Of a stretch of DNA of 32,000 nt, positions 5,011 to 31,625 are shown piece by piece. Location: assembly GCA_004563595.2 (NCBI GenBank), contig CP042461.1, positions 1,050,001 through 1,082,000 on the forward strand, read 5' to 3'. The stretch comes from Candidatus Saccharimonadota bacterium (GTDB lineage: Bacteria; Patescibacteriota; Gracilibacteria; BD1-5; UBA6164). Every line of letters starts with the position of its first letter. Position 1 is the first letter of the stretch. Under the pieces are notes generated by a model. That model made no database searches, had not been told where the DNA came from, and worked only from the letters and a program-made list of their open reading frames with translations. A program made the position numbers and the translations under genes.

Positions 5011-5101
5011 TTAAATAACTGTCAATCTCTTTTCTTTCACTTTTTAAAAAAGACATGATAGAATATAAAGTAAGACGATTTAAATAATAATATACTCTCC
5101 A

Positions 5102-6325
5102 ATGGATTTAGACGCTGATATACAAAAACTGCCAATTAAAAAAGACTTATGAGATGTCGTTGACTATATTAATGCTCTCTTTAAAAAAGCTATTGATTAC
5201 GGAGCATCAGATATACATGTAGAACCAACTGAAGATTTTCTCCTTATCAGGTTTCGTAAAGATGGTGATTTTATGATTATTGACAAAGTTCATCCTGAAA
5301 ATATCAGTGCTATAGTAACCAGGCTCAAAGTACTATCAAAGATAAAAATTGATGAAAATAAAAAACCTCAAGATGGGAAAATTGTATATTTCTATGAAGC
5401 TGATGACATGAATGTAGATATCCGTCTCTCTACCCTTCCAACAACCTATGGTGAAAAAGTGGTTATGCGTATATTAAAACAAGATGCCTCACTTACCAAT
5501 ATTGAAGCTCTATGACTTATTGATATCAATGTAGAAAAGGTAAGAGAAGCTCTCAAAAGTAATTATTGAATTATGCTCGTAGCATGACCAACTGGGTCAG
5601 GTAAATCTACTACCCTATTTGGTATATTAAAACATTTTAATCCTCTTGCATATAATATATCCACTCTTGAAGATCCGATCGAGTATAATATTGAGTATGT
5701 AAACCAATCCCAAGTAAAACCTGAAATCTGATATACATTTTCAACTGGTCTCAGAAGTTTGGTAAGACAAGATCCTGATATTATAATGGTATGAGAAATC
5801 AGGGATAAAGAAACAGCAACCCTTGCTGTTGAAGCCGCTCTTACATGACATTTAGTTTTATCAACTATCCATACCAACTCCGCAGCAGGAACTGTGCAAA
5901 GACTTATAAATATGTGAGTTGAACCATTTCTTTTAGCATCAGCTATGAAAATGGTTATATCTCAAAGACTTTGAAAGAGGCTATGTCAAAGCTGTAAAAA
6001 AGAACATCCTCTGAAAGATTATGAAATGAAAAAAGTAAAAGACTTTCTTGCTCCAATTGTAGAAAAAGATCAATTAGAAAACCTCGTCTTTTACAAATGA
6101 GAATGATGTGATGTTTGTAGACAGACATGATATAAATGAAGATTATGAATCCATGAAGTCCTGATAGTATGAGATTTTCTTGAACCTCTCATATTAAATA
6201 AAGAGAGTGCAAATGCAATGAGAACTATCGCAATCGAAAATTGAATGATTACTATAGTCCAAGATGCATTATTTAAAGCACTCATGTGAGAAACTACTGT
6301 TGAAGAAGCTCTTAAACTAATATAA
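5102..6325 (+). CDS. pilB: Type IV pilus assembly / type II secretion ATPase (PilB/GspE family, short form)
   Basis: 407 aa. ASDIHVEP. Walker A VAGPTGSGKSTT (its first G is TGA 5585..5587). LEDPIEY, RQDPDIIMVGEIRD and GHLVLSTIHTN. Tetracysteine region CQSC...CDVC. Confidence 0.9.
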
Positions 6326-6347
6326 AATTAAATAAAAACGTGAAAAT

Positions 6348-8243
6348 ATGTTTAATATATTCAAGAAAAAGAAAATAAATACTCAGGCTGTAAAGAGTTT
6401 TAATGAAGTTGTGAAAACAATTGATATTTTTATTCGTCTTTCAGAGTGGGAAAAAGCAAGAATGGCTTTGGCTGAGATAAGAAATAAAGAAAAAAAATCT
6501 CTTGCAGATCTTATGATAAAGATTGAGAGTGAAGATAAACTTTTCAGTGAAAAAGAAGTTATCAAACAAAATAAATTTTATAAGAAAAAACTGGTCAGTC
6601 TTGATAAATTAGAAGAGACTTTGATTAAAACTGAAAAAAAATTCCATGATGATATTCAAAATCAAAAATTTAAAATCAGATTTAAGTCTATAAAAACTGA
6701 GATCGAGCTCCTAGCATGAGGGAAAAAACATACAGAAGCAATGAATCTCTTACAGAAATTCCTAGAAGAAAATAAAGAAAAAGATATTGTAATTAAATTT
6801 TTCAATAAAGAAAAGAAGATTCTTTTAAAAAAGCTTGAAAAACACAAAGGACTAGAACAAGAAAAAATCAAAAGAAATGCAAAGTCAGAAGCTATGAATC
6901 TGATATGAGAAAATGTAAACATCGAACCAAAAGAGAAAAAAAAGAAAAAAAGTTCATTTTTTAGTGAGCTTAAAGAAAAAATAAATTTTTATAAAAAAAT
7001 AAAAGAGACTATTAGAAAAAAGAAATTACTCAGTGAAATCAATATCCTCATTGACGAAGATTCAAAAGTGAAAAATGATATCGCAGCAAAAAAATTAGCA
7101 AATATACATAGGTGACTCATCAAGGAAATCACAAATGATCAAATGTTATGATATGAACTCTATGGGAAAATACTCTGAGCAGATAAAATATCATGAGACA
7201 CCTTTTGATTTAATGAAAATACATCAAAATATAACTTCTTCTTATGAGATGCCACTGGTCATGGAATTAGAGCATGATTCATAGTTACACTCCTTAGTAG
7301 ATTCTTTAATAAATATGTCGATAAAAGTAGTTTATCTGAGTTGACTTATGAGATTAACAATGGATTAAAGCAAGATTTAAAAAATAGAAATTTTATCACT
7401 TGAGTATTCTTTGAAATACTCAAAAATAAAATCGGAACCATAAATTTTGTTTGAATGTGACATGAGCCAATGCTTATATTTAGGAAGAAAGAAAATACAA
7501 TTGAAAAAGTAATTCCAGGATGACTCGCAGCTTGAATCAGAATGATTAAAAATAAAGAAGATATTAAAACCAAAGAACTCAATCTAGGTGATGAAGATAT
7601 TCTTATTATCTATAGTGATTGAATGACTGATAGCAAAAATCCTGAAGGTTCTTTCTATTGAATTGATAGATTAAAAGATAGCTTTTTCAACATAGCCTCC
7701 GGTGGTTCTGATATTAAAAATATATATGATTTCCTTATTAATGATATCCAATTATTTAGAGGCTGAAGTAGTTTTGATGATGATGTCAGTATTTTAATGA
7801 TAAAAAGAAACTTCCTCAAAGATATTGTAAGAGAACCTTCTGAATATTTAGATGATCTCTCTAAAAAAGAATGACTCAAAAGAAATGATGTCAAAAAGAT
7901 GGAATGAAAAACCAAAGAAGAAATTAATGTCATACTAGAAAGTATTAAAAAAGAAAAAGAAACAAAGAAAATCATAAAAATTCTTGAAAATCTTTATTTT
8001 ACCTGAGAGATTTTAAAATTAAAGCAAGAAGCTATCCGTTTTATCAAAGCCTGATATATTCATAAAAAAATCAATTATTACCTTAAAAAAGCAATTGATA
8101 ATGAAAAAGGTTATAAGATAGATCAAAAAAATCAAAGAATAGATAGTAAATATACCGTTCTTATGGAACTCTATAAAAAATGAGATTATAAAACAGTTAT
8201 GCAAGAAGTTGAAGATATTATTGCACAAGATTGAAATATATAA
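6348..8243 (+). CDS. SpoIIE/PP2C-family Ser/Thr phosphatase domain protein with long coiled-coil flanks
   Basis: 631 aa with TGA=Gly. Central motifs ISGDTFGF, FFLGDATGHGIRAGFI, FVGMGHEPMLIF, LGDEDILIIYSDGMTDSKNPEG and DDDVSILMIK match the SpoIIE/PPM pattern. The N- and C-terminal regions are K/E-rich heptad-like sequence. It sits 22 nt after pilB and 25 nt before pilC. Confidence 0.8.
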
Positions 8244-8268
8244 AAAATTAATTAATAATATTATAATT

Positions 8269-9483
8269 ATGTTCTGAGGTCGTTTCTATGATAAATACTG
8301 AAATTTTAACAACGATAAGTTCGTTAAGCTTTTAGAGAAAGCCAGAAATGCACAATACAAAAAGCAAAAATCAACAAAAGGTAATATGAATAAAGAAATT
8401 ACCTTATTTGATAGCGCCTCAAAAAAAGAACTTTGGCAAATGATTAACAAACTTTCTATATTTATTAATTCGTGAATTGATGTAAAATGAGCTCTTACCA
8501 TCCTCATAAAACAAACAAAAAACCCATACCTTAAAAGAATTACTATTGAAATGCAGGAAAATATTAATCATGGGATTACTATGAGTGAGACTATGGCTCA
8601 ATATCCAAAAGTATTTGACTGATTAAGTACTGCACTTATCTGAGTATGAGAAAAAACAGGGCAATTATGAAAAATTCTTGCAGAGCTTGATAAGAACCTT
8701 TTAGAGAATATTGAGCTCAAATGAAAAGTAAAATGAGCCATGATCTATCCTGCTGTTCTACTAGTATTAACTCTCTGTATGGTAATCTTTATGATGATTT
8801 TTATTGTACCAAGAATTTCAGAGAGTTTTGAAAAAGCTGGGAGTGAGCTTCCAGGTCTCACTCAGTTTGTAGTAGCTGTTTCAAATTTTTTCATTGAAGA
8901 TTGGTGAAAACTTATCATTTGATTTATTGCAACTATTTCAATATTTAGAATCATCAATTCAACATATCACTGAAAAATGTTCTTTGCTATCATGTATACA
9001 AAGCTCCCTATTTTTTGATATGTAGTGAGGCAATCAAATATAGTATATTTTATTAAATCTTTTACCATTCTTCTTGATTCTTGAGTACTTCTATTAGAAT
9101 CACTGAAAACATCAAGTAAAGTAGTACCAAATCTTGCATATAAAAAAGAGCTTATCAGAATCAAAAATGAAGTTGAAATATGACTTACCATATCAAAATC
9201 TCTCTGATTGAACCTTGATTATGAAGCAAATGTATACTTAAATAATCTCTTTCCTGAAGAATTTGCTTATGTAGTAAGTACTTGAGAAGAAACTTGAAGT
9301 TTGTCAGACTCTCTCAAAAAAGTATGAGCAAACTATAACTGAGAACTAAAAAGATATATCTGAAACCTTTCAAGTCTGATGGAACCAGTTATTATCGTTA
9401 TAGTATGATTTTTAGTTGGTACTATTGTAGTTGCCATTATGCTCCCTTTCTTCGCGATGGGTGAAATTGCAAAAAACTTATAA
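8269..9483 (+). CDS. pilC: Type IV pilus platform protein (PilC/GspF family)
   Basis: 404 aa. Two T2SS-F-like halves (…GITMSETMAQYPKVFDGLSTALIGVGEKTGQL… and …EEFAYVVSTGEETGSL…). Three TM segments. Ends TAATAA. Confidence 0.9.
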
Positions 9484-9484
9484 T

Positions 9485-9511
9485 AAAAAACTGGGTTTTC
9501 CCAGTTTTTTT
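9485..9511 (+). terminator. Intrinsic terminator after pilC
   Basis: aaaaactggg-tttt-cccagttttttt. Confidence 0.7.
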
Positions 9512-9618
9512 GTGTATATGGTTTAAATTCATCCCCTTTTGACTATTCTCAAAAATATCCCAATCCTATAAATAATTAGTATTTTTCGCATAAAGTCCAC
9601 TGAAATGCTGCAAAAAAA

Positions 9619-9647
9619 TTGTATTTAAGGTAAAATTAAGGTACACT
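9619..9647 (+). promoter_or_regulatory. Candidate sigma70-like promoter for the pilin gene
   Basis: ttgtat (9619..9624), a 17-nt spacer, then tacact (9642..9647), about 75 nt upstream of the pilin ATG. In AT-rich DNA such matches arise by chance. Confidence 0.25.
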
Positions 9648-9720
9648 CTACAAGTCTTTAATAAAAGGCAACTAATTTTAAAATTTATTTTGTATTTTAT
9701 TTTCTTAACATAACATATTT

Positions 9721-10467
9721 ATGAGAAATACAAAACAAGCATTCACGTTAGTGGAACTTATCGTAGTTATTACTATTTTAGCTATACTTGGTACTATAGC
9801 CTTTATATCTTTACAAGGGTATTCAGCTGATGCTAGAAACTCTAAAAGAGTAAATGACCTTGGGAATCTTGCTGATTCTGTAAACATTAAGTCTACACAA
9901 GGATCATCTCTATTAAGTTTTGTAACTTCTGATACAAACACTACTCTTACTAATGCTAGTGTTGCTGGTACAGGAACTCTTGCTGCTAATTATAGTGCAG
10001 GTTTCCCTAACTATATCGCTCTTGGAGTAAAAGAAGAAGATTTTAAAGATCCAAATGGTCCAGAATATAGAGTTGCTGCAACTACTAATAAAAATGGTCA
10101 ATTTGAATTTGCTTCTTCTATTGAAAATGGTGCAGGACTTGATACTGCTAAAATAATCGGTAACTATAACAATAGAGGTGTAGCTGCTGGTGATACTGCA
10201 ACTATTACTTCTTCTGGTACTCTTTCAGTTACTCTTGCTGATACTGATATCGGTAAGATAGTAAGAGGAGATACTGTTACTGCTGGTGGTACTGCTGCTA
10301 TAGTAGTTACAAAAGTATCATCTGATGGTACAACTCTTACTCTTAACGCTGCTCATGGTGTAGGTACAGGTGTACTATTATCTGCTGCTGAATCAACTAG
10401 TATAATTGCTTCTACAACTGGTGTAACAACTCCAATTGAAGCTGATACTGAAACAGTTCCTTATTAA
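9721..10467 (+). CDS. pilA: Type IV pilin (prepilin with N-terminal methylation/cleavage motif)
   Basis: MRNTKQA-FTLVELIVVITILAILGTIAFISLQGY is the class III signal peptide plus conserved hydrophobic alpha-1 helix with Glu5. Position -1 is Ala rather than Gly. Thr/Gly/Ala-rich globular part. 248 codons with no TGA at all. Confidence 0.9.
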   Translation: MRNTKQAFTLVELIVVITILAILGTIAFISLQGYSADARNSKRVNDLGNLADSVNIKSTQGSSLLSFVTSDTNTTLTNASVAGTGTLAANYSAGFPNYIALGVKEEDFKDPNGPEYRVAATTNKNGQFEFASSIENGAGLDTAKIIGNYNNRGVAAGDTATITSSGTLSVTLADTDIGKIVRGDTVTAGGTAAIVVTKVSSDGTTLTLNAAHGVGTGVLLSAAESTSIIASTTGVTTPIEADTETVPY

Positions 10468-10492
10468 TAAATTTCTCGTAAATTTAAATTAT

Positions 10493-10526
10493 AAAAAGAC
10501 TTTCGCAAGAAAGTCTTTTTATTTTG
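10493..10526 (+). terminator. Intrinsic terminator after pilin
   Basis: aaaaagactttc-gcaa-gaaagtcttttt followed by attttg. Confidence 0.7.
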
Positions 10527-10563
10527 TGTTATTTTTGAAGAGGTCTCACTATCTACCTCATTC

Positions 10564-10602
10564 AAAAAAAAGGTATCACATATATTATGTGGTACCTTTT
10601 TT
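10564..10602 (-). terminator. Intrinsic terminator after pilT
   Basis: aaggtatcacata pairs with tatgtggtacctt (one G:U). There is a T-run on the minus strand, immediately 3' of the pilT stop. Confidence 0.65.
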
Positions 10603-10605
10603 CTT

Positions 10606-11688
10606 CTATGAAATATTTTCCTTAATCAACTTCGGATTGTTTGAGTACTTCAATCATTCCTCTTGAGTAATATATCAACTATTAATAAAATTAATAATAT
10701 CTGTTTCTAATAATTGCATCCCTTCTCTTGATCACGTTTGTATCACTGAAGGAATTTGATGAAGATCATTTTCTCTTATCAAGTTTGAAATCGCTGAATT
10801 TTTTATCAGTATTTCTTTTGCTAACTTTAATCATGTCCCATCTTCTGTCTTCAAAAGTCTTTGAGAAAAAACAGCGACAAGTGAATCTGCAAGTTGTAAT
10901 CTAATCTGATTTTTATCTTCTGCATTAAAACTATCGAGTATACGTGTTACCGTTTGATAAGCAGAACGAGTATGAAGTGTAGAAAATACCAAATGTCATG
11001 TTTCAGCAAGCCTCAGTGCCATCTCCATTTCTTCTTTTGATCTCATCTCTCCAAAAAGAATAACATGAGGGTTTTGTCTCATCGCCCCCATTAGTGCACC
11101 TTCATATGACAGAACATCTCTTCATATTTCTTTGTGCTCAATAATAGACTTTTTATGTTTGTGAATATATTCTATTGGATCTTCAATGGTAATAATATGT
11201 TTACTTGTATTTGCATTGATATGGTCAATCATCGCAGCAAGTGTAGTTGTCTTCCCTGAACCTGTAGGTCCTGTTACCAAGATAAGTCACTGCCCTAATT
11301 TTGTAACATCCTCATATACACTCGTAAGTCATAGATCCTTAGTACTTGGTATTTTTAATGTTAGAAGTCTTAACACCACCATATAATTTCACATTTGAAA
11401 AGAGATATTACACCTTAATCTTCTTTCTCAAAATGAAAAAGAAAAATCTAGATTTCTATCTGTGATAAGCTTTTTATATTGATCTTCTGTGATAAGTGAT
11501 TGCATAAATTCATAGGTGTCTGTAGCTGTTAAAAGCTCAATTCCATCATCTATTTTTACAATATCTCATCCTATTTTTATTGCAGGATAGGTTCCTACTG
11601 TAATATACATATCTGACCCTTCGTTGTCGATCATTACTTGAAGAAGTTGATCTTTGAATATATGATCTGGTTTTAAAATCTCATTCAT
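10606..11688 (-). CDS. pilT: Type IV pilus retraction ATPase (PilT family)
   Basis: 360 aa. GSDMYITVG. Walker [42 protein letters not shown] and [10 protein letters not shown]. Ends with TAG at 10606..10608. Confidence 0.9.
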
Positions 11689-11751
11689 TCTCTCAAAAAA
11701 TTATGGAAATATTCTATTAATATTATTGTATCATATTCTGGATAAAGCCAC

Positions 11752-11786
11752 AAAAAAAACACTGATTTTTATCAGTGTTTTTTTTA
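11752..11786 (-). terminator. Intrinsic terminator after the surface-protein gene
   Basis: aaaaaaaacactgat-tttt-atcagtgtttttttt. Confidence 0.7.
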
Positions 11787-11798
11787 ATCTATATTATT

Positions 11799-12659
11799 TT
11801 ATTTTTGAAACTTTTTTCTCAGAAATATAAATCCAGTTAACAGTGTAGTAAATAGTAATACTATTCCAGTTTCTGTTCCTGTTTGAGGACTTGCAGCTGC
11901 ATTAAGAGCTACTTCTTCTAAGTTTTCAATTTCTTCTGTAGTTTCTTCAGCGTTGAGTAAATCATCATCTGAAAGAAGTGCATCAATTGAGAGTTCTTCT
12001 TCTTGTACTCCTTCTAATGTATCAGATGTTTCAAAATTGTATAAGTCATCATCTAATACAATTTCAGTTCCCATTATATCTTTTAATGAAAGTACAATAA
12101 TCATATAGTTAAAGTTTTTTTCAAACGTTTCAGCAATAGATAATTGTAATTTATTTTCTGCACTATTATATGTCATTGCATCTACTGTAAGTTCACTTAG
12201 AAGTTTAAATTCAAATTCATCTTCAGTAAGTGCTTCAAAGAAAACAACTTCTAATGTCCTTGTATCTTTTACAATAACTTTTACAATACCTTGTTCAGTT
12301 GGAACTATTTCATTCATAATTTCTACATCCTCAAGTGAATCAGTAGTAGTAAAATCTATATTTCCATCAGCTCCAAAGATACTTAATAAGCTATAGTTAT
12401 TCCCTGTTTTTAAATCTTCATTTAATGTAAGGATTACTTTGCTTGCATCATTAAAGTCTTTTGAAGCAAAAGTTATATTAATATCTTTTAAAACTTTCAT
12501 TTCACCTTCTACCGTATCCCCGAGAGTAATATCTTGTGATAATTGAAGATTTATATTTTTAGTATCTGCTACTTCCACTGTATCAATATTTGCTGCATGA
12601 ACAGAAGTGATACATAAAGTAGTAATAAACATAAATAATAGTGTTCTTATATTTTTCAT
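11799..12659 (-). CDS. Secreted surface protein with C-terminal sortase-type sorting signal (SPQTG + TM + basic tail)
   Basis: 286 aa, intact even in the standard code (no TGA). Signal peptide MKNIRTLLFMFITTLCITSVHA. Acidic body. C-terminus ...AASPQTGTETGIVLLFTTLLTGFIFLRKKFQK has the LPXTG-like tripartite layout. Confidence 0.75.
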   Translation of the reverse strand: MKNIRTLLFMFITTLCITSVHAANIDTVEVADTKNINLQLSQDITLGDTVEGEMKVLKDINITFASKDFNDASKVILTLNEDLKTGNNYSLLSIFGADGNIDFTTTDSLEDVEIMNEIVPTEQGIVKVIVKDTRTLEVVFFEALTEDEFEFKLLSELTVDAMTYNSAENKLQLSIAETFEKNFNYMIIVLSLKDIMGTEIVLDDDLYNFETSDTLEGVQEEELSIDALLSDDDLLNAEETTEEIENLEEVALNAAASPQTGTETGIVLLFTTLLTGFIFLRKKFQK

Positions 12660-12752
12660 ATATATGGTAAGTTATGTGTAATAAATAATGTACTTCTATT
12701 ACATCATATTTTTATTTATGAGTCAAATATATTATGCTCCAAAGTATCTTTT

Positions 12753-13925: not shown

Positions 13926-15563
13926 CTACTTATCAGAATCTTTATCTACTAATAAATTTTCCGAAAGTATCTTCAATTCATTTATAAATGAAGGAATAAA
14001 TCAATAATCTTTAAATTTATCCACCATCAAACTTGCTTTTACAGATTTAGATCTAGTTAAAAGATTTACTTCATCTTTCATAGCTTGTAACTCTTCTTTT
14101 TCATTATTTTTTAAAAATTCTTTTTCAATAGTCTCTTCAAAATCTCATTCTAATATTACTAAATTTCCATTACTAATATTCTTATTTTTAAAAAGATTTA
14201 TATTTTCTGTAATATCTGTAATAGGAATATTAAAACATTTAGAAATTAACTCATTAGATTTTTCTTTACCATTTGTGCTATCATTATCAAAAATACAAAT
14301 TACAGGAATTCAAAATTTATGAAATAATCTCCAATATTTTGGAATTTCACCTTTTCCACCTACTCATAAAATTGAAATTCAAAGTGAATTATAGTTAAGT
14401 CATATCGTTTCAAAATATTTGGGAATAGTAATTTCTTCTGTAGATCATTCTCATAATATTATTAATCTACTGAAAAATCATTCAGTTAAACGATAATTTG
14501 ATATCGATTTATAGAAATTTCTCACTTTATCTTCACTATTTCAATGAGGTCATCATGTATTATTTGTAAAATCTAATAGTTCAGAGCATGTTAGCTTACA
14601 AATTTTAGAGTATGTTCTTCATTCATTTTCTTCATCATCAACTTTATAAATTCTTCTAATAGATTCAAAGTTATATATCTCTAAAAAATTTGAATCATGA
14701 GTTGTGTAAATTACCTGTAATCAACGATCTGCAATTTCTTTCAATATTTCAAATAAATGCTTCCTAGCCTGTGGATGTAAATATATTTCAGGCTCTTCTA
14801 TTGCAATAATTCATGATGCTCAACGAAAGTTTTTAGCATAACTTCTTAATAAAGAAATGATTGTTAGATTTTTAGCTCAATCTCATAGTTCTTCAATATC
14901 TATATTATTTCCAACATTAGGGTCACTAGCAAGTATGTTAATTGTCTTAAAATAATTATTTGGAGTGAAAGGCTTAAAATCAATATCTAATTTATAAGGA
15001 GAATCTGATTGCATCTCATTAAAAAAAGATTTAAAATCTCTTTCAAAGTTAGAAAAGCTCTCAACTTCATTAAAAATATCTTTAACACTATCAAAATGAG
15101 TTGCTAGTTTTAATTTTTGCTCATCATTTATTGATTTGTTAAAACTTTTTGAAATTTTTGACATCAAAGACCATTTATTAAATGATGTATCTTTAGATAT
15201 GCTTCTCTCTGCTGATAAGTATGTGCAAGGGAATTCATCTTTTATACTTGTATAAATTTTTCATCAAGAAGAATCACAATATTCTGGCCACTTTTCTCAA
15301 CTATCAAATGTGACATAGCTTCAATTATCAAATACTATTTTTATTAAAATAACTTTTTTTGTATCTCAACAATAATAATCATATTCCTCTAGCCTATCTC
15401 CATTAACCCAACTCTCTCATAGAACTAAATCAATTGCCCTCAAAAAATTTGATTTTCATGCATTATTTGCTCATATTATTGATACAATTCAATTTTCAGG
15501 GAATTCTAAGACTTCATCCTTTATACTTCTAAAATTTTTAATATGTACTTTTTTTATTTTCAT
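13926..15563 (-). CDS. OLD-family nuclease (ABC-type ATPase fused to Toprim domain)
   Basis: 545 aa. N-terminus IKKVHIKNFRSIKDEVLEFPENGIVSIIGANNAGKSNFLRAIDLVLGE, where both Walker A glycines are TGA. LGDGAKNL, Walker B IIAIEEPEIYLHPQ and YTTHDSNFL. C-terminal Toprim IILGEGSTEEI ... GISILGVGGKGEI ... PVICIFDND. Ends with TAG at 13926..13928. Confidence 0.85.
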
Positions 15564-15689
15564 AATAGATTTTTATAAATTACCTATTTACACTCTTCAC
15601 TCACAACGTATTGAATTTCAACCATTTCTTCATTTTATAAAAGTTAATAATTATTTGTTTAATGAAAATTAAGTTAAATACCAAAAGAT

Positions 15690-15730
15690 ATAACAATAAT
15701 ACCATGACTTCGCCTTGGTGTTATTGTTAT
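15690..15730 (-). terminator. Hairpin at the 3' end of the rhs/orphan/immunity unit
   Basis: ataacaataatacca pairs with tggtgttattgttat (one wobble). On the minus strand it is followed by atcttttgg. It overlaps the stop of the immunity gene. Confidence 0.45.
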
Positions 15731-16077
15731 ACAGACATTAGTATTCATAAATATGTTCATCATACAATTCATGATAATATAGCAATAATAAATGAAATTC
15801 TCAAAATATATTTTTTTGTAAATAATGAAACATTATAAAGAAAAACCATTAATAAATAATTATAAATAGTGATAATTATAGCTTTTATTTCATCTACTCA
15901 ACTCGGTAATATTTCAGCTAACCAAAAAGAATTATTAAAATTATAAACAAAAATTAAATTTATATAATTCCATTTATAGCTAGTTGAAAGATCAATTATA
16001 GTAAAAAGTATTGGAATGATACTTAACCATAAAAATCAAAAAATAATTTTACTGTTTAATATATTTTTTTTATTCAT
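15727..16077 (-). CDS. Putative immunity protein for the orphan Rhs toxin cassette (small polytopic membrane protein)
   Basis: 116 aa, ATG 7 nt after the orphan cassette stop. MNKKNILNSKIIFGFLWLSIIPILFTIIDL...FIIAILSGIVGGTYLGILMSV. It has several hydrophobic segments. Its size and position match the gene at 16874..17227. Confidence 0.6.
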
Positions 16078-16083
16078 AATAGT

Positions 16084-16887
16084 TTAGTTATTATTTAAAG
16101 TATTTCACCACTCAAGATAAGTATCTACATCATAATCTTTATGTAATCCAGGGTTTAAAATTGGAGAATAAAAATTATATGTTCATATGTATTTATCATT
16201 CGTCAATTTTTCTGAATTTTTATAAAAAATTATTTCTCTATGTCAATTAGGTGAGACAAATTTTCTCTCTATTCATCATACATTATAATCTTGATGAAAA
16301 AAGGCTCAAAGATATGCCGATCAACGAAATTTAGGTTCCTCCCATAATTCATCTTTAGCATGATCAATAGATGTAGGTAAATTAATATTATATCTATTCC
16401 TATCATAATGTAATTGTTTAGCTATTTTTTCTGCAGGTAATAACTCATCATATGCAATTTTTCTTGTTTCCTGAAGTCTCTGTATTAAATTATTTTTACC
16501 TGTTATCATTGGGTATTTATAAGCTTCTGTAATTTTTTGGTTAATTGACTTAAATATAAGTTTTTTTTCTAAATAATCATCATAAGCTTTCACAAATTCC
16601 TTAGCAGCTAACCCCATTCTATCAACAAACCCAACTGGATTATTCCCAACATACGCATACAAATTCACATCATCACTTATATCTATAGGATCTCTACTTA
16701 TAAATCTCCCCAGTTGTGGATTGTAATATCTTGCTCTGTTGTAGTAGAGCTTGAGTTCTTTTTCATATTCATGATCTGTATACAGTCTTGTGTTTCAAAT
16801 CGCTCATTTTTCATTGTATCTTTTGAAAAAATAAAACCAAGACAGTTCTAATATCTTAGTTTTATTTAGAATATTAAGCTGTAATAT
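16084..16887 (-). CDS. Orphan Rhs C-terminal cassette (core-end fragment + variable toxin domain), no canonical start codon
   Basis: The frame is open from the TAA at 16888..16890 down to TAA 16084..16086. It reads ...IGNTRLYTDHEYEKELKLYYNRARYYNPQLGRFISRDPIDISDDVNLYAYVGNNPVGFVDRMGL followed by a ~174-aa CT domain. The first in-frame ATG is the M of DRMGL, so this is probably a silent or displaced cassette. Confidence 0.7.
16567..16801 (-). repeat. 235-bp direct repeat (Rhs core-end), copy in the orphan cassette
   Basis: Colinear with 17715..17949 at a constant offset of 1148 bp. The central part (…aaccccattctatcaacaaaccc…ctccccagttgtggattgtaatatcttgctctgttgtagta…) is nearly identical. Confidence 0.85.
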
Positions 16888-17227
16888 TTAGAAAGAAGAA
16901 TCAAAATATAGAAGATAATATTCATAAAATGAGAGTATACATATATATATTGTTTACTTTAGCATTTATCATAATTTTAGTATAAATAAAAACTAATATA
17001 AAATTAAATATAAATAAAATAATAATATAGAATATTGTATCTTGAATACTAAATGGTATTGGTAAAAATAGGTTTCATAGAAGTCACCCTAAATATGTTT
17101 TATAAACAAATAATATATCATGATTTTTATATCATTTTTCAAATAAAATTGTACTTATTGAAGCAAGTAATGGTATAAAATTTATTAAACCAAAATTAAT
17201 ACTTGTTTCTTTTATATATTTTCACAT
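16874..17227 (-). CDS. Putative immunity protein for the main Rhs toxin (small polytopic membrane protein)
   Basis: 117 aa, ATG 17 nt after the Rhs stop. MGKYIKETSINFGLINFIPLLASISTILF...IFYIIILFIFNFILVFIY...LILGILSSIFGFFFLNITA*. Its stop (16874..16876) lies within the open orphan-cassette frame, which reaches up to 16887. Confidence 0.6.
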
Positions 17228-17243
17228 AAATTATTAGTTAAAA

Positions 17244-20200
17244 TTAAAATCAGGTTTTTCTTCATAATAATGAAGTATTATCATTATATGAATTTCACCA
17301 TTCATAATAAGGACTTATATCATATTTACTATGTAATATAGGCTCATCCACAGGACTAAAAAAATTATAAGTTCATATATCTTCATCATCAGTTTCTAAA
17401 TACCCTCTGTGAGTATATACAACTTCTTGATGTCAATCAAAAGATACAAACTTTTTATTTGGTACATGCAACGGTGCAGTTTGTTGATGATATAATGCTT
17501 TTCAATAAGATAATTGATTCCATTTATCTTTATCTAAATTTTTTAATTCATATGATTGATTTAAAGTGTTAAAATCATTTCTATTATAATGCAAATCTCT
17601 TGCTAACTTTTGTTTTCTATTAAATTCATTTGTTAATTGTTGCTTTTTATATGAATTCAAAAATAAAAATCAAAGATCTTTACCTCATCAAAAATTATAT
17701 ATTTTTGATTTTATTTCCAAATAATCATCATAAGCCTTCACAAACGCCTTAGCAGCTAACCCCATTCTATCAACAAACCCAACAGGATTCCCTCCAACAT
17801 AAGCATACAAATTCACATCATCACTAATATCAATCGGATCTCTACTTATAAATCTCCCCAGTTGTGGATTGTAATATCTTGCTCTGTTGTAGTAAAGCTT
17901 TAATCCCCTATCATATTCTCTTCCAGTATACAATCTCGTGTTTCAAATCTTGGACTTCTTGAGTCTGGTTATTTTTCCATTCTCTTCTTTTGTATACGGT
18001 TTTCAAAATACATCATATGCGTACTCCTCAACTATACTACCAGTTTCATCTGTGATTGCAATAATACTTCATAGGTGGTCTTTTTGGTAGTAATAGGTAT
18101 TGGTTTCTACGTAACTTTCTTTGATCTTTCTGGTCTTTGCCTTACCATTTGCGTTTATATATTCTTCTTCTATCTTTCTTGTCTTGTAAGCTATTATATT
18201 CATAGAAATGATGTCATCTATTGAGTTTCAATAAATAAACTCTTTTGAATTCTTTAGCTTGTCTTTTTTAGAGTAGTTTTCTTCTCAGATGATGTCTTGG
18301 TTTGAGTAATAGTATTTTCTATAACTTCCGTTATTTAATTTCTTTTCGATTCTTCTTCATAGGACATCATAGCTTATTTCTACTATTCTTTTGATCTGCT
18401 CTATTTCTTCTGTTTCAATATCATTTACCTTTTTGTAGATATTTTTTTCTACTTTAATTAATCTATTTTTGTAATCATAGCTGTAGATGTATTGTCTTTT
18501 ATTATTCAGATTATTTCAAATGAGATTTCCATTATTATCATAGATGAGTCTTCATTCAAGTTCTATTTCTTCTGTTTCTTCGAGGCTTTCCTCAATAGCG
18601 TCTGATTCTTCTTCTATGAATTCTGCTTCTGTAATAATTTCAGTGCTAATTATTTCTATTGTTCCCGTTCCTGTTGGAGTTTCTATTGTGCCTGTACTGG
18701 TTTCTTCTTCTATTTCTTCTATGTCTACATAGATTGATCTATCAAGGTATTGGTTCAGATTATTTGTAGCATAAGCAAATTTCTTTTCTCTTTGAGTTCC
18801 GTTTTTTGTGAGTTTTGTTAGGATTTCTCTGCTTCTGTTTCACATCAAATCATATTCAAAACTTTCTGATGATTTGTTTTTGTGTTTTGTTTGGTAGTTT
18901 GTAGTGGTAATTCTGTCTTGAGTATCATAGCTATATGAATCTACTCCGTTTGAAACGATATTTCATTGAGTGTTGTATGTGTAGTTATAGTTTCAGAGTG
19001 AACTTAATCTTGAGAGAGCATCATAACTGTAATTTGTTACTACTCAATTTCAGAGTGTTTTACTGAGTTGTGTGAAACTATCATATGTATAGTTTGCTAT
19101 ATTTTGGTCATTTCTTGTAATACTTGTTCATCTGTTTGCTCCATCATATGTATAGTTTGTAGATATGGCTTCTACTCCCTCTCCTGCAGGAGAGGGTTGG
19201 GGTGAGGTTATACTTGTTCTATTTCATGAAATGTCATGTGTATATGTTATCGTTTTATCTGAATTTGTTTCATTTACGAGTCTTCATAAACTATCATATT
19301 CAAATCATAGATCATTTCACTCATTATCAGTGGCACTTATGAGTCTTCATAATGCATCGTATTCATATATTTCACTGGTTACTCATCATACTCATACTCA
19401 TGTTTGAATATCTCTTTGTTTGAGTCTGTTGAGTCTATCATAATTGTTTACAACAACGGTTCCATTTGGATCTGTTGTTTTGTTGAGGTTTCATGATATA
19501 TCATATTCATATCTCATTACTTGTTGATCTGGATATGTGATTGTAACAAGTTGTCAGAGGTCATTATAATCATAGAGAGTAATATTGTCATTTGCATCTG
19601 TTACTTTTTCAAGATTTCAATTGATATCATAACTATAATTTATTGTTCTTCATTCATGAGATTCTGATAATATATTTCAACTATAATCATATGTATAATG
19701 GGTTATTCATCCATCTTTATCAGTTTTTGTGATAACTTGATTGAGTTTATTATATGCATAGCCCTCAAAATCTCCATTATTATCTATTTCTTTTATGAGC
19801 CTTGAATCTGTATCATATTCATAACTCGTTCCTATAGTCTTCCCTGTTGTTCAAACTATTTTTTTCTCTGTTATTTTATCATTTTTATTATAACTGTGGG
19901 TGATAATATTACCGAGTGTATCTGTAGCTGTTGTTAGTCTATTGAGAGTATCATAACCGTACAGTGTAGAGTTCCCTTTTGGGTCTACTGTTTCTATAAT
20001 ATTTCATATGGCATCATATTTTGTTTTTGTTGTTATTGTTTCATTTATGGCTAAGAGTATTTTTTTATTTTCAATCACTCTTCATAATATATCAAATGTG
20101 TTTTGCTCTTTTAATACTAAAGTATTATTTCCATCAGAAACTCGTGCTTCTGTTATTCCTCATAATGCATCATACTCTAACTGAGTAGTTGTAAAGTGTG

Positions 20201-23200
20201 GATCTATTTGTTTCTCGATCCTATCAAAGAGATCATATTCAAATTTTGTCTGCGTCTCGTTTGGATGAATTTGAGTGATGAGTCTATTATTTATGTCATA
20301 GACATATTTTGTAATGATATTTTGATTGATTCCTGCCTCCGTAGGAATGACTGTTTTTTTAATAATAAATCATGCTTCATTATATTCAAACTTCTGAGTG
20401 GCATTATTTCCATCAGTTATTTCGGTAATATTTGAATTTTTATCATACTGAGTCACTGTTATTTTTTGCCTACTTGCATCTATGTCTGTTGTGATTTTTG
20501 TAGGATTATCTAAAATGTCATATTCATAACTACTGTCTATAGTTTCAGTTCCTGATAATATTATTTTCTCGTTTGTCTTTTTATTCAGTTTATTATATAC
20601 ATATTCACTTACGATTCCCTCTGGAGTGGTAAGCTTTTTAAGCATATTAAAATCATCATAACTGAGATTTGAAATATTTCATTCTGCATCTGTTATACTG
20701 GTAATATTTCACTTATTGTCATAGCTATAGTTTGTAGCTATTTCCTCTCATGAAAGAGACTTAACAGTTTTTAATAAATTTCCATTCTGATACTCAAAAC
20801 TTGTTTCGGATCCATTTCCATCAATCTTTTTTATAAGTTCTCAGAGTGTGTTGTATTCAAACTCTTCTATAACTATTATAGTATTTCCATCATAATCTTG
20901 CACTCAAAGTACTTCTGTTTTTGTGATGTTTCCATTACTATCGAGTTCAAAGTTTGTAACTCTTCCATTTGGAGCAATAGCTTGAGTTATTTTATTAAAG
21001 ACGGGGTGGTAGGTATAGCTATATACTATATCTTCTGCTGAGTCAGCTGACTGAACATCTTGTTTCATTCTCTTTTCTATGAGGTTTGATCTCGTATCAT
21101 AGTCATATGTATATCCATTTCAAAGTGGTAAGATTTCTTTTGATATATAGTTATTATTATCATATTCATAAGTGTATATACTGTCTCAAGTATATTTTTT
21201 CACTATCTTCCCAATGGTATTTCAGTTTGAATCATATGTATAGATGACATTGTTTCCTTCCCTATCTAAGACACTGTTTTGAGTTATTTGATTCTCTGCA
21301 TCAAGAGTATAGGTATATCAAATAGTTCCTTCTCAAAACTTTTGTGTTGCAACTCTATCATCTCCATTATATGTATTTTCTACATAGATGTTATTTTCTG
21401 AATCTATAAGTTGTAGTATATTATGAGACGATTCAAAAGTATCTCACATCGTATATGTGAAACTAATTTCTTTTGAGCTTATAGTATTCGTAGTTGTAAT
21501 AGTTTTTAAATCAAATTCATCTCCATCAGTTTCTCCTGTTCAGAAATATATAAACTCAACGGTATCTCCGTTAAAATCAGTTATATCTTTGATTCTCGAA
21601 TGACCATAATATGTCAGATTATATACTCTCGAGTTTGTATCTATTATTTGCGTTAATGCATTGTTTGCATCATACATAAAACTCATAGTATTTGAGAAAT
21701 TATCTGTGATACTTTGTAGTCTTAGGTTATTATTAAAACTGAGAGTTGTAGTGTTATTTAAGTTCACAGAGTATGTTCCATTTGCTAAGCTGAGGGTTCA
21801 TTTAAGAGTCTCATTTCCTAAAAATCAAGTTCATGATTTTATAAATTGGAATACTCCAAGCTTCCCATTGTGGTAGTTTATATTTCCATCATTGTCTTCA
21901 ACTAAAAATTGATTGTAATTATAATCAAAATTATTTCAGAGGGGTCCGTTATAATAGGATTGATTTTGGTAGTTTATTTTAAACTCAAATGGAAATCAAA
22001 CAGACTTGTATTGCATAAGAGTGTTATCATATACAAATTCTCATGTGTTGAGGTTTACAGGATCTCATGCTGTTGCTTCTGTATTTATTTCTTGGGATAC
22101 TGTGTTATTCGTACTCTGAGTACTTGTTTCTTGGATCGGTCAGATAAAAATCTCTTCTCATGATGGAATGTTATTCTGAACGAAAATATTTCCATTATTT
22201 TCTACATAATTAGAGTATGAAAAATCTGGAGTAAAATTCTCATTTATTACATTCACTTGATAAGTAGTCGTAGCATCTGATAGATTTCCATCTGCATAGA
22301 CTCATCTTACATACCAGTTATATGTTCCTGTAGGAAGTGAAGCTATTTCAAGTTCATAATAACGCTCTACTACTTGTATAGCACTATCATCCTTAAGATA
22401 GAAATTATATGATACGGCATTTTCTATGCTATCCCAAATAAGGTAGGTATATCATTGTTTGTAATCTATGTTTAAAACATCTCATCATGTGCTTACTTGT
22501 TCCACTTGTTGTACTATTTCTTCGATAACCGTAGCATCAACATTTTCGATAGTTTGATCTACTATTACATCTCAGCTAATAGTTGTTGTTGTGATATCTA
22601 TTTCATAGTTTGATGAAATAATCACGATGTCTGCTTGTATATTTCCAGATACTGTTTGCGTAATTACAGCAGGTCAACCACCACCCGTATTACTTGGTGT
22701 ACTCGGAGCTAAGTTCACTGTTTTTACAACTACTTTATTTACTGTAGTATCTCCTATTGTTTGTGTCGTAATACTTTGCGTTACTTCTAGATTTTCTATT
22801 TCAATTACTATTGGTGCTGTATCCTGAGTAATCGTTTTAATAGTAATACTTTCTCAGCTTCATTCTCAATTTGAGGATACTATTGCTCCATGTCAGCTAA
22901 TTCATCAAAGAGATATTTGTTTTGTTCCATCTACATATAATGTATACCCGTTTAAATAAATAACTCCATCATAAACAAAGTCTCCATCTATAGTAATGTT
23001 ACTTTGTAAGTTCATGTCTGATGATATTGGTGTCGATCAATTGATAGTTCTCGCTTGGGTACCATTTACATATAACTGAGTAACATCAAAGCTTCAATTA
23101 TTTTCTATATTTCATTTTGCTGTTATTTTTGAAGTTCATCCTGATGAAGTGAGTATAGTTCAATTATTTACTACATTCCCTTCTACTGTTATATTTGCCC

Positions 23201-26200
23201 CATTTAAAAGATTATATTCTTCTTGATTAGCTATAAGTAAATCTCAGTTTATAGTAATTGGGTCTGGGAGAGTATTTTTATTTAAAGTAAGAGTTGCTAT
23301 ATTTGAATCAGCGATTCCATCATTTACTTTTGCATAAATAACTACTGCTCCATCTTCTAGGTTTGAGAGATCTAAATTGAAATTAAATTCTCAATTCTCC
23401 ATTGGAGTAGATCATGTGGAACTGAAATTTATATAATTTGTTCCATCAAGTGAATAAGAAAAAGTGAGAGTTTGATCTGCATCAAGATCTTTAATTCAAG
23501 CGATTTTGAAATTAATAAATTCTTGGTTTATCAGGGTTATAGAAGTTTGTGTAGAAGTGAGGCTTCCTATAAGTGGAGCCACTTGATCGAGTCAAATTCA
23601 TTGAATACATCATGGGACGTTGATACATTTAGCTTCTGTCCAATCAGAATCGGATAAAATACCATCTCATTTTACTCTCCAGTAAAGATTCGTTCAAGTT
23701 TCTTTGATCGCCGTTGGAAGTAAATATTGAGTTGAGTTATTGACACTTATATCTTCTTCTCATGTGATTGAAAGGATGTAGTCAGAGTATGAATCTATTG
23801 GAGCCCATTTTAGGTAGGTGTTTGTAGAGATGTTTCCGTTTATGTTGTCTAATGCTCCATACAAATATGCTTGCGATACATAACTCAATGAACCATTATT
23901 AATTACATCTCATTTAAAATGAACATAAAATAATTTTGCAGCATTGTTGTTGTATCATCAAATAATACCATTATTCTCTATACCTCCATCTACTGTTAAC
24001 GTATAATAATTATACGTTAATTCTGTTTTCCTTAATATTCCATTTCAGGTAAGTACTACATCTCAGTTTAATATAGTGTTTCACATAATTATTGATGTTC
24101 CATCTAATGTTAATCTGTCAAATGTTGATGTATTTACTATATTTCATTTTGCCAGTACTTTTCTTCATGTGAATCCATTCAAATTATACAACACTTCTGT
24201 ATTCTCTATATTTGTTTCTGTATTATAAATACTTCATACTTTGATTATTTCTCCATCTCAGTTAATATTTGAACTTAGTATTTTTCATACATACGGATAG
24301 TTCAAATATATATCCTTTGCCCCATCTACATACAATGTATAATTCTGTAAATATGTTGTAAATTGAAAATTGATGTCTCATAATAGTTCAACATCTCAGT
24401 TTAAATAAAGATTTGGTTTGAAATTATCAGATGAAGTAATAGTTCTGACTCCATCTGTTTCAGTATCTTGAATATAGGTGTTTCATGACCATCATGAATC
24501 TGATCCATTTGTAACATCTCAATACAAATATGCTTGCGATATATAACTTAATGAACCATTATTCAGTACATCTCATTTAAAATGAATATAAAATAATTTT
24601 GCAGCATTGTTGTTGTATCATCAAATAATACCATTATTCTCTACATTCCCATTCACTGTTAATGTATAATAATTATACGTTGATTCTGTTTTTCTCAATA
24701 TTCCACTTCAGGTAACTACTACATCTCAATTTAAAAGAGTATTTCATGTAATTTTTGATAACCCATCTAATGCTAATATATCAAATGTTGATGTATTAAC
24801 GATATTTCATTTTGCTAGTACTTTTCTTCATGTAAAGCCATTTAAATTAGATCATACTTCTATATTCTCTATATTTGTTTCTACATTGTAAATGCTTCAT
24901 ACTTTGATTGCTTCTCCATCTCAATTTGTATTTGAACTCAATACTTTTCATACATATGGGTAGTTCAAATATATATTCCTCGTTCCATCTACATACAAGG
25001 TATGGTTTTGTAAATATGTTGTAAACTGAAAATCTATGTCTCAGAGTAATTCAACGTCTCAACTTAAATAAAGGTTTGGTTTGAAATTTGGTGATGAGGT
25101 AATAGTTCTAACTCCATCTGTTTCAGTATCTTGAATGTAGGTATTTCACGACCACGATGAATCAACTCAGTTTGTAACATCTCAATATAAATATGCTTGT
25201 GATATATAACTCAATGAACCATTATTCACTACATTTCATTTAAAATGAACATAAAATAACTTTGCAGCATTGTTGTTGTATCATCAAATAATACCATTAT
25301 TCTCTATACCTCCATCTACTGTTAATGTGTAATAGTTGTACGTTGATTCTGTTTTTCTCAATATTCCACTTCAAGTAATTATTACATCTCAATTTAATAT
25401 AGTGTTTCATGTAATAATTGATGCACCATCCAATGTTAATCTATCAAATATTGATGTATTAACAATATTTCATTTTGCTGTTACATCTCTTCATGTAAAT
25501 CAATTCAGATTTAATCATACTTCTGTATTTTCCATGTTTGTTTCTACATTGTAGATACTTCATACTTTGATAGTCTCTCCATCTCAGTTTCCATTTGAAC
25601 TTAGTATTTTTCACACATACGGATAGTTTAAATATATATTCTTCGTTCCATCTACAAACAATGTATAATTTTGTAAATATGTTGTGAATTGAAAATCTAT
25701 ATCTCATAACAGTTCAACATCTCAGTTTAAATAGAGATTTGGTTTGAAATTTTCTGATGAAGTAATGGTTCTGACTCCATTTGTTTCAGTATCTTGAATA
25801 TAGGTGTTTCATAACCATGATGAACCTGATCCATTTGTAACATCTCAATACAAATGTGCCTGACTAACATAACTCAAACTCCCATTATTAATTATATCTC
25901 ACTTGAAATGAACATAAAATAACTTTGCAGCATTGTTGTTGTATCATCAAATAACCCCATTATTCTCTACATCCCCATTCACTGTTAATGTATAATAGTT
26001 GTACGTTGATTCTGTTTTTCTCAATATTCCACTTCAAGTAATTATTACATCTCAATTTAATGTAGTATTTCATGTGATTTTTGATAACCCATTTAATGTT
26101 AATGTATCAAATGTTGATGTATTTACTATATTTCATTTTGATGATACCTTTTTTCATGTGAATCCATTCAAATTGTACAATATTTCTGTATTCTCTATGT

Positions 26201-26933
26201 TTGTCTCCACATTATATATATTTCAAACTTTGATTGATTCTCCATCTCAGTTAGTATTTGATGATAATATTTTTCATACATACGGATAGTTCAAATATAT
26301 ATTCTTTGTCCCATCTACATATAAGGTATGGTTTTGTAAATATGTTGTGAATTGAAAATCTATATCTCATAACAGTTCAACATCTCAGTTTAAATAGAGA
26401 TTTGGTTTGAAATTTTCTGATGAAGTAATGGTTCTGACTCCATTTGTTTCAGTATCTTGAATATAGGTGTTTCATAACCATGATGAACCTGATCCATTTG
26501 TAAGATCTCAATACAAATGTACCTGACTAACATAATTTAAACTCCCATTATTAATTACATCTCACTTGAAATGGACGTAAAATAACTTTGCAGCATTATT
26601 ATTATATCATCATATAATCCCATTATTCTCTACATCCCCATTTACTATTAATGTATAATAATTGTACGTTGATTCTGTTTTCCTCAATATACCATTTCAC
26701 GTAATACTCACCCCTCCCACCGTAGTATTTCATACAATATTAACTAATCAATTCACCTCAACAACATCATCAACATCTGGAACGACTCCTTCCACCCAAG
26801 TTGATACACTATTCCAATTCCCTCAAGCTGACGTTGAATGGATAGTTGGCTCTAATACAGCCCAAGCGCTCGCAAAACTAAACGCAAAAAATAAAGACAT
26901 TATCACAAATATCCTCAAAACAATCCTCCTCAT
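17244..26933 (-). CDS. Giant Sec-dependent Rhs/YD-repeat polymorphic toxin (WapA-like), 3,229 codons
   Basis: ATG 26931..26933 and TAA 17244..17246 share a frame, and all track fragments with YD sequence (17688, 20370, 21540) share it too. No TAA/TAG appeared in the parts translated by hand (26933-25800, 23880-23340, 22450-17244). Signal peptide MRRIVLRIFVIMSLFFAFSFASAWA. 221-aa tandem repeats. FN3/Ig-like modules. DPVNLNTGEF, many YD repeats, and core end ...YYNPQLGRFISRDP...NPVGFVDRMGL plus a ~170-aa CT domain. Confidence 0.85.
17715..17949 (-). repeat. 235-bp direct repeat (Rhs core-end), copy in the main rhs gene
   Basis: See 16567..16801. It encodes IGNTRLYTGREYD...NPVGFVDRMGLAAKAFVKAYDDYLE. 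Confidence 0.85.
23810..26745 (-). repeat. In-frame tandem repeat array, period 663 bp (221 codons), ~4.4 copies, inside rhs
   Basis: The same landmark (antisense ttgtacgtt(g/a)attctgtttt) recurs at 24010, 24673, 25336, 25999 and 26662. 25681..25840 is identical to 26344..26503 over 160 nt. It encodes GN/GD-rich beta-helix-like units (ITGNGILRKTESTYNYYTLxVNGDVENNG...). Confidence 0.9.
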
Positions 26934-31578: not shown

Positions 31579-31625
31579 TTTTTTTATTATTAGAAAATTA
31601 AATATATGATTTTAAAATCTGGTAA

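Follow-up and report, generated by a model that had tools for sequence, protein, structure and literature searches.

The 32,000-nt stretch of Candidatus Saccharimonadota bacterium DNA analyzed here (the window; contig CP042461.1, positions 1,050,001 to 1,082,000) carries four consecutive minus-strand genes, which encode a giant Rhs protein, a small membrane protein (imm1), an orphan Rhs module, and a second small membrane protein (imm2). We consider it fairly probable that these genes form a polymorphic-toxin locus of an organism using genetic code 25, in which the C-terminal tip (CT) of the Rhs protein is an envelope-acting and probably enzymatic toxin, with membrane-located immunity and a swappable orphan cassette. 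The architecture of the locus is that of a classical Sec-exported Rhs/WapA-type toxin with an orphan cassette. What is new is an uncatalogued toxin family, partners that are uniformly membrane-bound or exported, a possible kinship with the AMOP domain, and a host in which TGA is recoded.

The tips of the giant Rhs protein (main CT) and of the orphan module (orphan CT) share 36% identity over 173 columns (BLASTP E = 3e-26), and all six sequence blocks that an earlier note on this DNA had listed for two diverged homologues were found in both. Neither tip had a match in Pfam, NCBIfam or PDB sequence searches, and none was obtained with 2-sequence and 6-sequence profiles against PDB sequences, by tblastn against phage genomes, or with nuclease, deaminase, ADP-ribosyltransferase and peptidase models, in line with the earlier note, which could not assign the CTs to a toxin family. 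The orphan CT, used as query, recovered its own database entry (P0001, in which TGA is translated as Trp) together with two relatives, and a profile of these three sequences was run exhaustively against 1.84 billion representative sequences. This search returned 358 representative clusters (50% identity) at E ≤ 1e-3, including 46 at E ≤ 1e-10, with a conserved unit of ~115 amino acids. No Pfam or NCBIfam model covers the family, 81 members of which were also scanned. Two sub-threshold similarities were not relied on: DUF6756 over residues 67-174 of P0081 (E = 7e-5; 23 bits, below the cut-off of 27), a stretch that lies largely upstream of the core, and DUF3114, with E about 0.02-0.07 in six of the 81 members (e.g., residues 83-146 of P0062). 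These models could be remote relatives, or what they describe could be the pre-toxin part of the Firmicutes subfamily. Literature searches on AMOP with polymorphic toxins, on Rhs proteins in Gracilibacteria, and on the DUF names found no paper, and the family is uncatalogued and uncharacterized as far as the libraries and literature searched show.

Carriers of many types have the domain at their C-terminus or close to it, in at least Proteobacteria, Firmicutes-like contigs and code-25 lineages. The carriers include Rhs proteins of both GC-rich and AT-rich organisms (P0007, P0019, P0046, P0086, and P0087), a MafB N-domain protein encoded beside a MafA gene, eCIS_core (DUF4157) proteins, DUF7211 proteins, fusions to peptidoglycan-binding domains (PG_binding_1), and a CdiA-like "hemagglutinin repeat-containing protein" on a Psychrobacter plasmid, while Moraxella bovis plasmids carry a gene of the family next to a VENN pre-toxin gene. 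This range of Rhs, CdiA-like, MafB and eCIS carriers shows that the domain is a genuine, widespread polymorphic-toxin module. The name "Rhs toxin domain" given in the earlier note is therefore too narrow, as the domain is specific neither to Rhs proteins nor to one lineage. In P0025 the domain is present twice (residues 35-146 and 219-340), and the 2960 amino acid protein P0112 also has two stretches of it; the domain is internal rather than C-terminal in P0051, P0071, P0080, and P0112, and a Lipase_3-like domain stands alongside in P0067 and P0080. Such doubled and internal copies hint at multi-effector proteins.

An alignment of 81 correctly translated members, numbered after the core of P0014 (a homologue from another code-25 genome with 59% identity to the main CT), shows five invariant residues, R10, E62, N82, H93, and D97, and conservation of at least 90% at H7, N11, H41, N51, K53, S56, G59, G79, T80, Y81, P100, G105, and N106. 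The family signature is HYxRN .. H .. NxK(F/Y)VSxDGxE .. GTYN .. HxxxDVxP(Y/W)xxWGN. The His of the "GH.E" block, which the earlier note had listed among the shared blocks of the window copies, is not conserved: it is Asp in the code-25 contig L009 and Lys, Arg, Phe, Tyr or Val elsewhere.

The fold was predicted with AlphaFold2 from an 81-sequence alignment headed by P0014. The resulting model is a compact alpha/beta fold with a predicted local distance difference test score (pLDDT) of 95.8 and a predicted template modeling score of 0.87, and comprises, in order, an N-terminal helix (with H7, R10, and N11), a short strand and a helix ending in H41, two strands with K53/S56 and E62, the GTYN turn, a long helix on which a single turn separates H93 from D97, and a C-terminal helix. 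For a second model, the alignment was headed by a member of Firmicutes type, and the result is likewise a confident alpha/beta globule (pLDDT 93.7). In a Foldseek search of the PDB, the sole meaningful match of the first model was 9c6t, the TSR-AMOP region of human Isthmin-1 (ISM1; probability 0.96, query-normalized TM-score 0.57, E = 0.03), and the same chain was the best match of the family sequence profile against PDB sequences (E = 0.23), with GTxN..HxxxDVxP(W/Y) aligned. When the profiles were compared by hhalign with the ISM1 sequence, identical residue for residue to the PDB chain, the family profile gave 83% over 42 columns and a second profile 73% over 77 columns. Foldseek found no match among viral structures.

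The toxin family and the AMOP domain, which is known from Isthmin-1, MUC4, and SUSD2, share this sequence block and, by prediction for the toxins, an extracellular setting and a plan of terminal helices with a central sheet, the AMOP fold being a half-barrel of central strands with helices at the termini. However, AMOP has eight conserved cysteines forming four disulfides, and the authors of the ISM1 structure describe it as a fold of its own for which no enzymatic role is known (PMC12000326), whereas the family alignments contain no conserved Cys column, and R10, S56, and E62 are apparently not conserved in ISM1. Moreover, none of the 81 members matched the Pfam AMOP model PF03782 at E ≤ 10, 9c6t was absent from the top 50 Foldseek matches of the second model, and no enzymatic or toxic activity is known for AMOP. 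The relationship is thus suggestive but unproven. The stronger proposal is that the domain represents a novel class of enzymatic toxins acting on the envelope, folded unlike any characterized toxin, and that the AMOP domain of metazoans is related to it and may even derive from it; we regard this as rather doubtful. The C-terminus of teneurins descended from Rhs toxins, and an origin of AMOP from a toxin domain would parallel this case.

To gain insight into the site of action, we inspected the gene that follows the domain at 15 loci, including both window copies. The window partners imm1 and imm2 have GRAVY (grand average of hydropathy) values of ~1.0, and each contains four hydrophobic segments, three of them strong and one weaker, which agrees with their earlier description as polytopic membrane proteins of 117 and 116 amino acids. 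Their pairwise similarity is weak (E = 0.058), but an alignment of the two with the partners of homologous CTs from other loci is in register throughout. The pairing of the domain with small membrane ORFs is conserved in other genomes, so the refuting condition named in the earlier note, partner ORFs absent or not conserved beside homologous CTs, did not arise. Small polytopic partners follow the domain in nine of the 15 loci. In addition to the two in the window, these are three code-25 contigs (L008, L009, and L010), where the partner always has 113-119 amino acids and is homologous to imm1 or imm2; a non-recoded contig of 29% GC (L015/16), with a partner of 102 amino acids; and Psychrobacter and Moraxella plasmids (L018, L019, and L020), with ORFs of 148, 128, and 84 amino acids downstream of the toxin.

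The other partners are of different types. Two Firmicutes-like contigs (L012 and L017) encode an ankyrin-repeat protein of ~280 amino acids with a lysine-rich N-terminus and a single transmembrane helix, features that place the ankyrin repeats outside the cell, and a fragment of an ankyrin-type partner follows a truncated toxin copy in L011. A lipoprotein is encoded after an Rhs fragment on a contig of 52% GC (L014), a beta-rich partner after a complete Rhs protein of 1823 amino acids (L021/22), and a 380 amino acid protein with an N-terminal transmembrane helix after the MafB-type protein (L023). The partner gene directly follows the toxin in every locus examined, its type changes with the lineage, and no cytoplasmic-type partner was found among the 15 loci. 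This pattern is informative because known immunity proteins are nearly all globular proteins of the cytoplasm (Zhang et al., 2012; PMC3482391). In several toxins a transmembrane helix is also present just ahead of the domain. As for co-variation, the main CT and the toxin of L010 (P0014, followed by the L010 ORF) are 59% identical and their partners 45%, and the orphan CT and the L009 toxin are 58% identical and their partners 40%; among the five code-25 pairs, the two toxin pairs that are most alike thus also have the most similar partners.

Given that the partners in all 15 loci are polytopic, transmembrane-anchored or lipoproteins, the most likely site of toxin action lies beyond the cytoplasm, either on the outer face of the cytoplasmic membrane or within the envelope. 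The suggestion of membrane or envelope action in the earlier note is strengthened by the partners that are not polytopic, which are signal-anchored ankyrin proteins, signal-anchored beta-rich proteins or lipoproteins, all extracytoplasmic. We propose that the Sec-exported, YD-shell Rhs protein would deliver the ~115 amino acid toxin that follows its Rhs core, that imm1 would protect the producer and its kin, and that the silent orphan cassette could take the place of the active tip through recombination between the copies of a 241-nt repeat. Outside the cytoplasm of the target, the putative enzyme would use the invariant Arg, Glu, and Asn with the helix-borne His-x3-Asp pair, and possibly H7 and H41, on a membrane-associated substrate or a wall precursor, and the immunity protein would capture it at the membrane.

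Several points weigh against this proposal. The designation as an enzyme derives from the invariant polar residues of the alignment, with no known catalytic fold or motif recognized, and the GTxN and HxxxD motifs, being shared with the non-enzymatic AMOP domain, may have a structural role. Toxicity and protection are predictions from genomic context. Partner topology was assigned from hydropathy plus the positive-inside rule rather than with a dedicated predictor, the L021 partner gains a transmembrane anchor only with an upstream alternative start, and polytopic partners could also fit a mechanism inside the bilayer. Toxin identity and partner identity over the five code-25 pairs are not significantly correlated (Spearman 0.33, p = 0.35). 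Finally, the putative autoproteolytic cleavage motif of the Rhs core reads DRMGL (VDRMGL), where the canonical motif is DPxGL.

Polytopic immunity is a hallmark of membrane-targeting toxins, such as pore-forming colicins and the CdiA-CT of Escherichia coli EC93. It is therefore conceivable, if unlikely, that the domain is a non-enzymatic envelope toxin, which binds and withdraws an essential molecule that is embedded in the membrane or linked to lipid, or else disturbs the bilayer, and is intercepted within the membrane by its polytopic partner. The nine polytopic partners among the 15, the transmembrane helix upstream of the domain in some members, and the fact that structurally the domain resembles only AMOP, a binding or adhesion module without known catalysis, are consistent with such a toxin. 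However, the core is hydrophilic and predicted to be a compact alpha/beta globule without a hydrophobic hairpin, the strict conservation of five polar residues between distant lineages is seen more typically in catalytic domains, and the soluble extracytoplasmic partners (ankyrin proteins and lipoprotein) imply ordinary protein-protein neutralization. We find it quite improbable that the domain is a nuclease or other enzyme acting in the cytoplasm, with membrane partners that block its translocation across the inner membrane. Blocking of uptake has been proposed for the immunity families Imm-CdiI and Imm17, which have two transmembrane segments (Zhang et al., 2012; PMC3482391), the earlier note had raised the same option, and the conserved His, Glu, and Asp would suit many enzymes of the cytoplasm. 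Nevertheless, the nuclease, deaminase, ADP-ribosyltransferase and peptidase models found nothing, the "GH-E"-like His is variable, and the peptidoglycan-binding fusions point to the wall. In addition, three unrelated partner types expose a soluble domain outside the membrane, which fits direct binding of the toxin there better than the blocking of one importer, and makes direct neutralization outside the cytoplasm the likelier mode of immunity.

The weak sequence and fold similarity to the adhesion-associated AMOP domain, and the nature of the Rhs protein, which is giant, of surface type, and equipped with repeats and a signal peptide, would also agree with a non-toxic, AMOP-like adhesion or host-binding tip of an epibiotic bacterium, next to which the small membrane ORFs would be unrelated neighbors. 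We regard this as highly improbable, as the domain sits exactly at the toxin position of Rhs, CdiA, MafB, and eCIS proteins, is polymorphic, has an orphan cassette, and is always directly followed by a small partner gene whose type changes with the lineage, whereas the AMOP similarity was not recovered with the second model and the AMOP disulfide cysteines are absent. An enzymatic toxin acting outside the cytoplasm is thus the reading that we retain.

Five known toxin classes were considered and rejected. The two window copies, and only these, superficially resemble GH-E/HNH-EndoVII nucleases in their "GH.E" string, but no Pfam match was obtained even at E ≤ 1, the His is variable, the predicted fold is not HNH, and the family partners are extracytoplasmic. 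A pore former was rejected because the domain is a hydrophilic alpha/beta globule of ~115 amino acids (pLDDT 94-96) without a hydrophobic helical hairpin, unlike the helical pore-forming colicins. The colicin M motif is absent, and a colicin M-like enzyme was rejected, as was a PLD/HKD enzyme. A LAS metallopeptidase would fit the HxxxD motif, but the domain has neither an HxH motif nor a fold match.

The coordinates of the locus and of other features referred to here are given in the following table.

Table 1. Features of the Rhs toxin locus and reference genes in the window, and partner ORFs on plasmids (coordinates of the window unless a locus is named).
Feature	Coordinates	Strand	Description
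Giant Rhs/YD polymorphic toxin gene	17244..26933	-	3229 aa (amino acids), 163 TGA-Gly codons, code 25
Tandem repeats of the Rhs protein	23469..26753	-	residues ~61-1155, five copies, exact 221-aa period
Main CT, after DRMGL	17247..17756	-	170 aa; N-terminal linker FVKAYDDYLE.. then toxin core
Main CT toxin core	17289..17606	-	~106 aa; LHYNRN .. YHQ .. KFVSFDGHQE .. IGTYNF .. HSKYD .. EWGN
imm1	16874..17227	-	117 aa, polytopic, 3-4 transmembrane segments; start 16 nt after Rhs stop; presumed cognate immunity
Orphan module	16084..16887	-	open frame without ATG; Rhs-core remnant and diverged CT; overlaps imm1 end
Orphan Rhs-core remnant	16609..16806	-	66 residues
Orphan CT	16087..16608	-	174 aa; core 16099..16425
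imm2	15727..16077	-	116 aa, polytopic; start 6 nt after orphan stop; presumed cognate immunity of orphan CT
Direct repeat, copy 1	17709..17949	.	Rhs-core end and CT start
Direct repeat, copy 2	16561..16801	.	in orphan; 88% identical to copy 1
FtsZ	30397..31611	-	TGA at conserved glycines
PilB-like	5084..6325	+	TGA at conserved glycines
Polytopic partner ORFs	L018 2994..3440; L019 2929..3315; L020 2099..2353		absent from the gene tables shown, which are known to be incomplete; original records may annotate them

The giant Rhs protein consists of a Sec-type signal peptide, five tandem repeats, a DUF6531 domain (E = 5.7e-10), an RHS-repeat shell (Pfam RHS_repeat, E = 3.1e-80 in 4 stretches), the Rhs core, and the C-terminal toxin, and the public gene call for it on the same contig carries TEN_YD-shell. 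The core ends in ..NPVGFVDRMGL and is followed by the tip, which coincides with the main CT delimited in the earlier note. The repeats, marked by GILRKTE at residues 81, 302, 523, 744, and 965, are matched by no Pfam model and probably form a beta-helix-like surface stalk. Tandem Repeats Finder reported no tandem repeat, the 663-nt unit being longer than its maximum period. With respect to the features of effectors delivered by a type VI secretion system (T6SS), namely a PAAR- or VgrG-binding N-terminus or T6SS neighbors, the N-terminus here is the Sec-type signal with the repeats, no PAAR, VgrG or T6SS genes are present in the window, and the neighbors are type IV pilus, FtsZ, and OLD-ATPase genes.

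The reading frame of the locus follows from the genetic code. Under the standard bacterial code (table 11) the region is broken into short ORFs, those of at least 100 amino acids amounting to 8.4 kb in the six frames, compared with 45.8 kb when TGA is read through. TGA is found at invariant glycines of FtsZ (GGGTGTG) and of the Walker A motif of the PilB/PilT ATPases, the giant Rhs gene has 163 in-frame TGA versus 133 GGN codons, and the glycine of the ..KWGN block is GGN in a homologue from another contig and TGA in the window. Since TGA stands at glycines of universal proteins and has a GGN counterpart in a homologue, the organism reads TGA as Gly (code 25), which bears out the assumption made in the earlier note. 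The window is the reverse complement of part of the 412,643-bp NODE_17 of the ENA assembly ERZ510998, whose public gene calls translate TGA as Trp (code 4), and copies such as P0001 have Trp at conserved Gly positions. Because public entries carry Trp for TGA, a word-indexed protein search with the Gly-translated main CT gave no match, and the code-4 translation of public protein sets conceals such families from word-based searches. Contig scans with back-translated peptides, and then with a degenerate DNA pattern (TGA or GGN), yielded chance matches only, and promoter and terminator scans of the window DNA, with its GC content of 25%, gave no discriminating signal.

The layout of an expressed Rhs gene and a silent orphan cassette is the usual one. 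The core remnant of the orphan matches TIGR03696 (Rhs_assc_core, E = 7.5e-23), and the main copy has the same sequence there. The 241-nt direct repeat (88% identity) spans the core end and the tip start of both copies, and is likely a homology handle for swapping the tip-immunity cassette, judging from its position. In the related code-25 contig L008 (1926..7748 and 9651..10043), the expressed Rhs gene has another tip, with a GHSFG lipase/esterase-like motif, and is followed by small ORFs; the toxin family studied here is present there only as an orphan behind the expressed Rhs, and a further lipase-type orphan follows. As this arrangement shows, cassettes of different tip families are shuffled.

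The gene immediately downstream of imm2 (13926..15572, minus strand) encodes an OLD-family ATPase/TOPRIM protein of 545 amino acids (public call: Pfam AAA_15, AAA_21, and OLD-like_TOPRIM), a typical anti-phage defence nuclease, so the toxin cassette adjoins a defence gene. Further away, a cluster resembling type IV pilus and type II secretion systems (5084..12671) encodes two T2SSE ATPases, a T2SSF platform protein, an N-methyl pilin without TGA codons, and a SpoIIE-domain protein, and an acidic surface protein of 286 amino acids, also without TGA codons, is encoded at 11799..12659.

Compared with Rhs/WapA-type loci, which are Sec-exported and not linked to the T6SS, the window has the same YD/RHS shell, Rhs core, variable CT and downstream immunity gene, and the same start-less orphan module of core remnant, CT and immunity gene with a homology handle. 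As expected for cognate immunity and an orphan cassette in Rhs systems, the gaps between toxin and partner genes are 16 nt and 6 nt and the handle spans 241 nt, from which protection is predicted. It differs from these loci in that its toxin domain is in no catalogued family, its immunity proteins are polytopic instead of cytoplasmic and globular, its core ends in DRMGL instead of DPxGL, and its host uses code 25. Envelope effectors with membrane-located or exported immunity proteins include colicin M with Cmi, TelC with TipC, the pore-forming colicins, whose immunity proteins have 3-4 transmembrane segments, and CdiA-CT(EC93) with CdiI. The window toxins are like these effectors in having a partner that is membrane-embedded, anchored or exported, but the searches revealed no resemblance to these effectors in either sequence or fold.

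The toxin tips of Rhs, contact-dependent inhibition, MafB, type VII, and extracellular contractile injection systems (eCIS) have richly supplied both new enzymology and targets for antibacterials. Its membrane-bound or exported partners mark the present family as a probable envelope-directed weapon, and envelope targets are the most useful for antibiotic discovery. If the link to AMOP is true, these proteins would be the first prokaryotic relatives of that animal domain, and the molecular function of AMOP would become approachable through a catalytic bacterial homologue. Known members of the TGA-recoded lineage have been reported as epibionts or predators, and a Sec-exported Rhs protein with such a tip could help a recoded cell to attack its host or its competitors.

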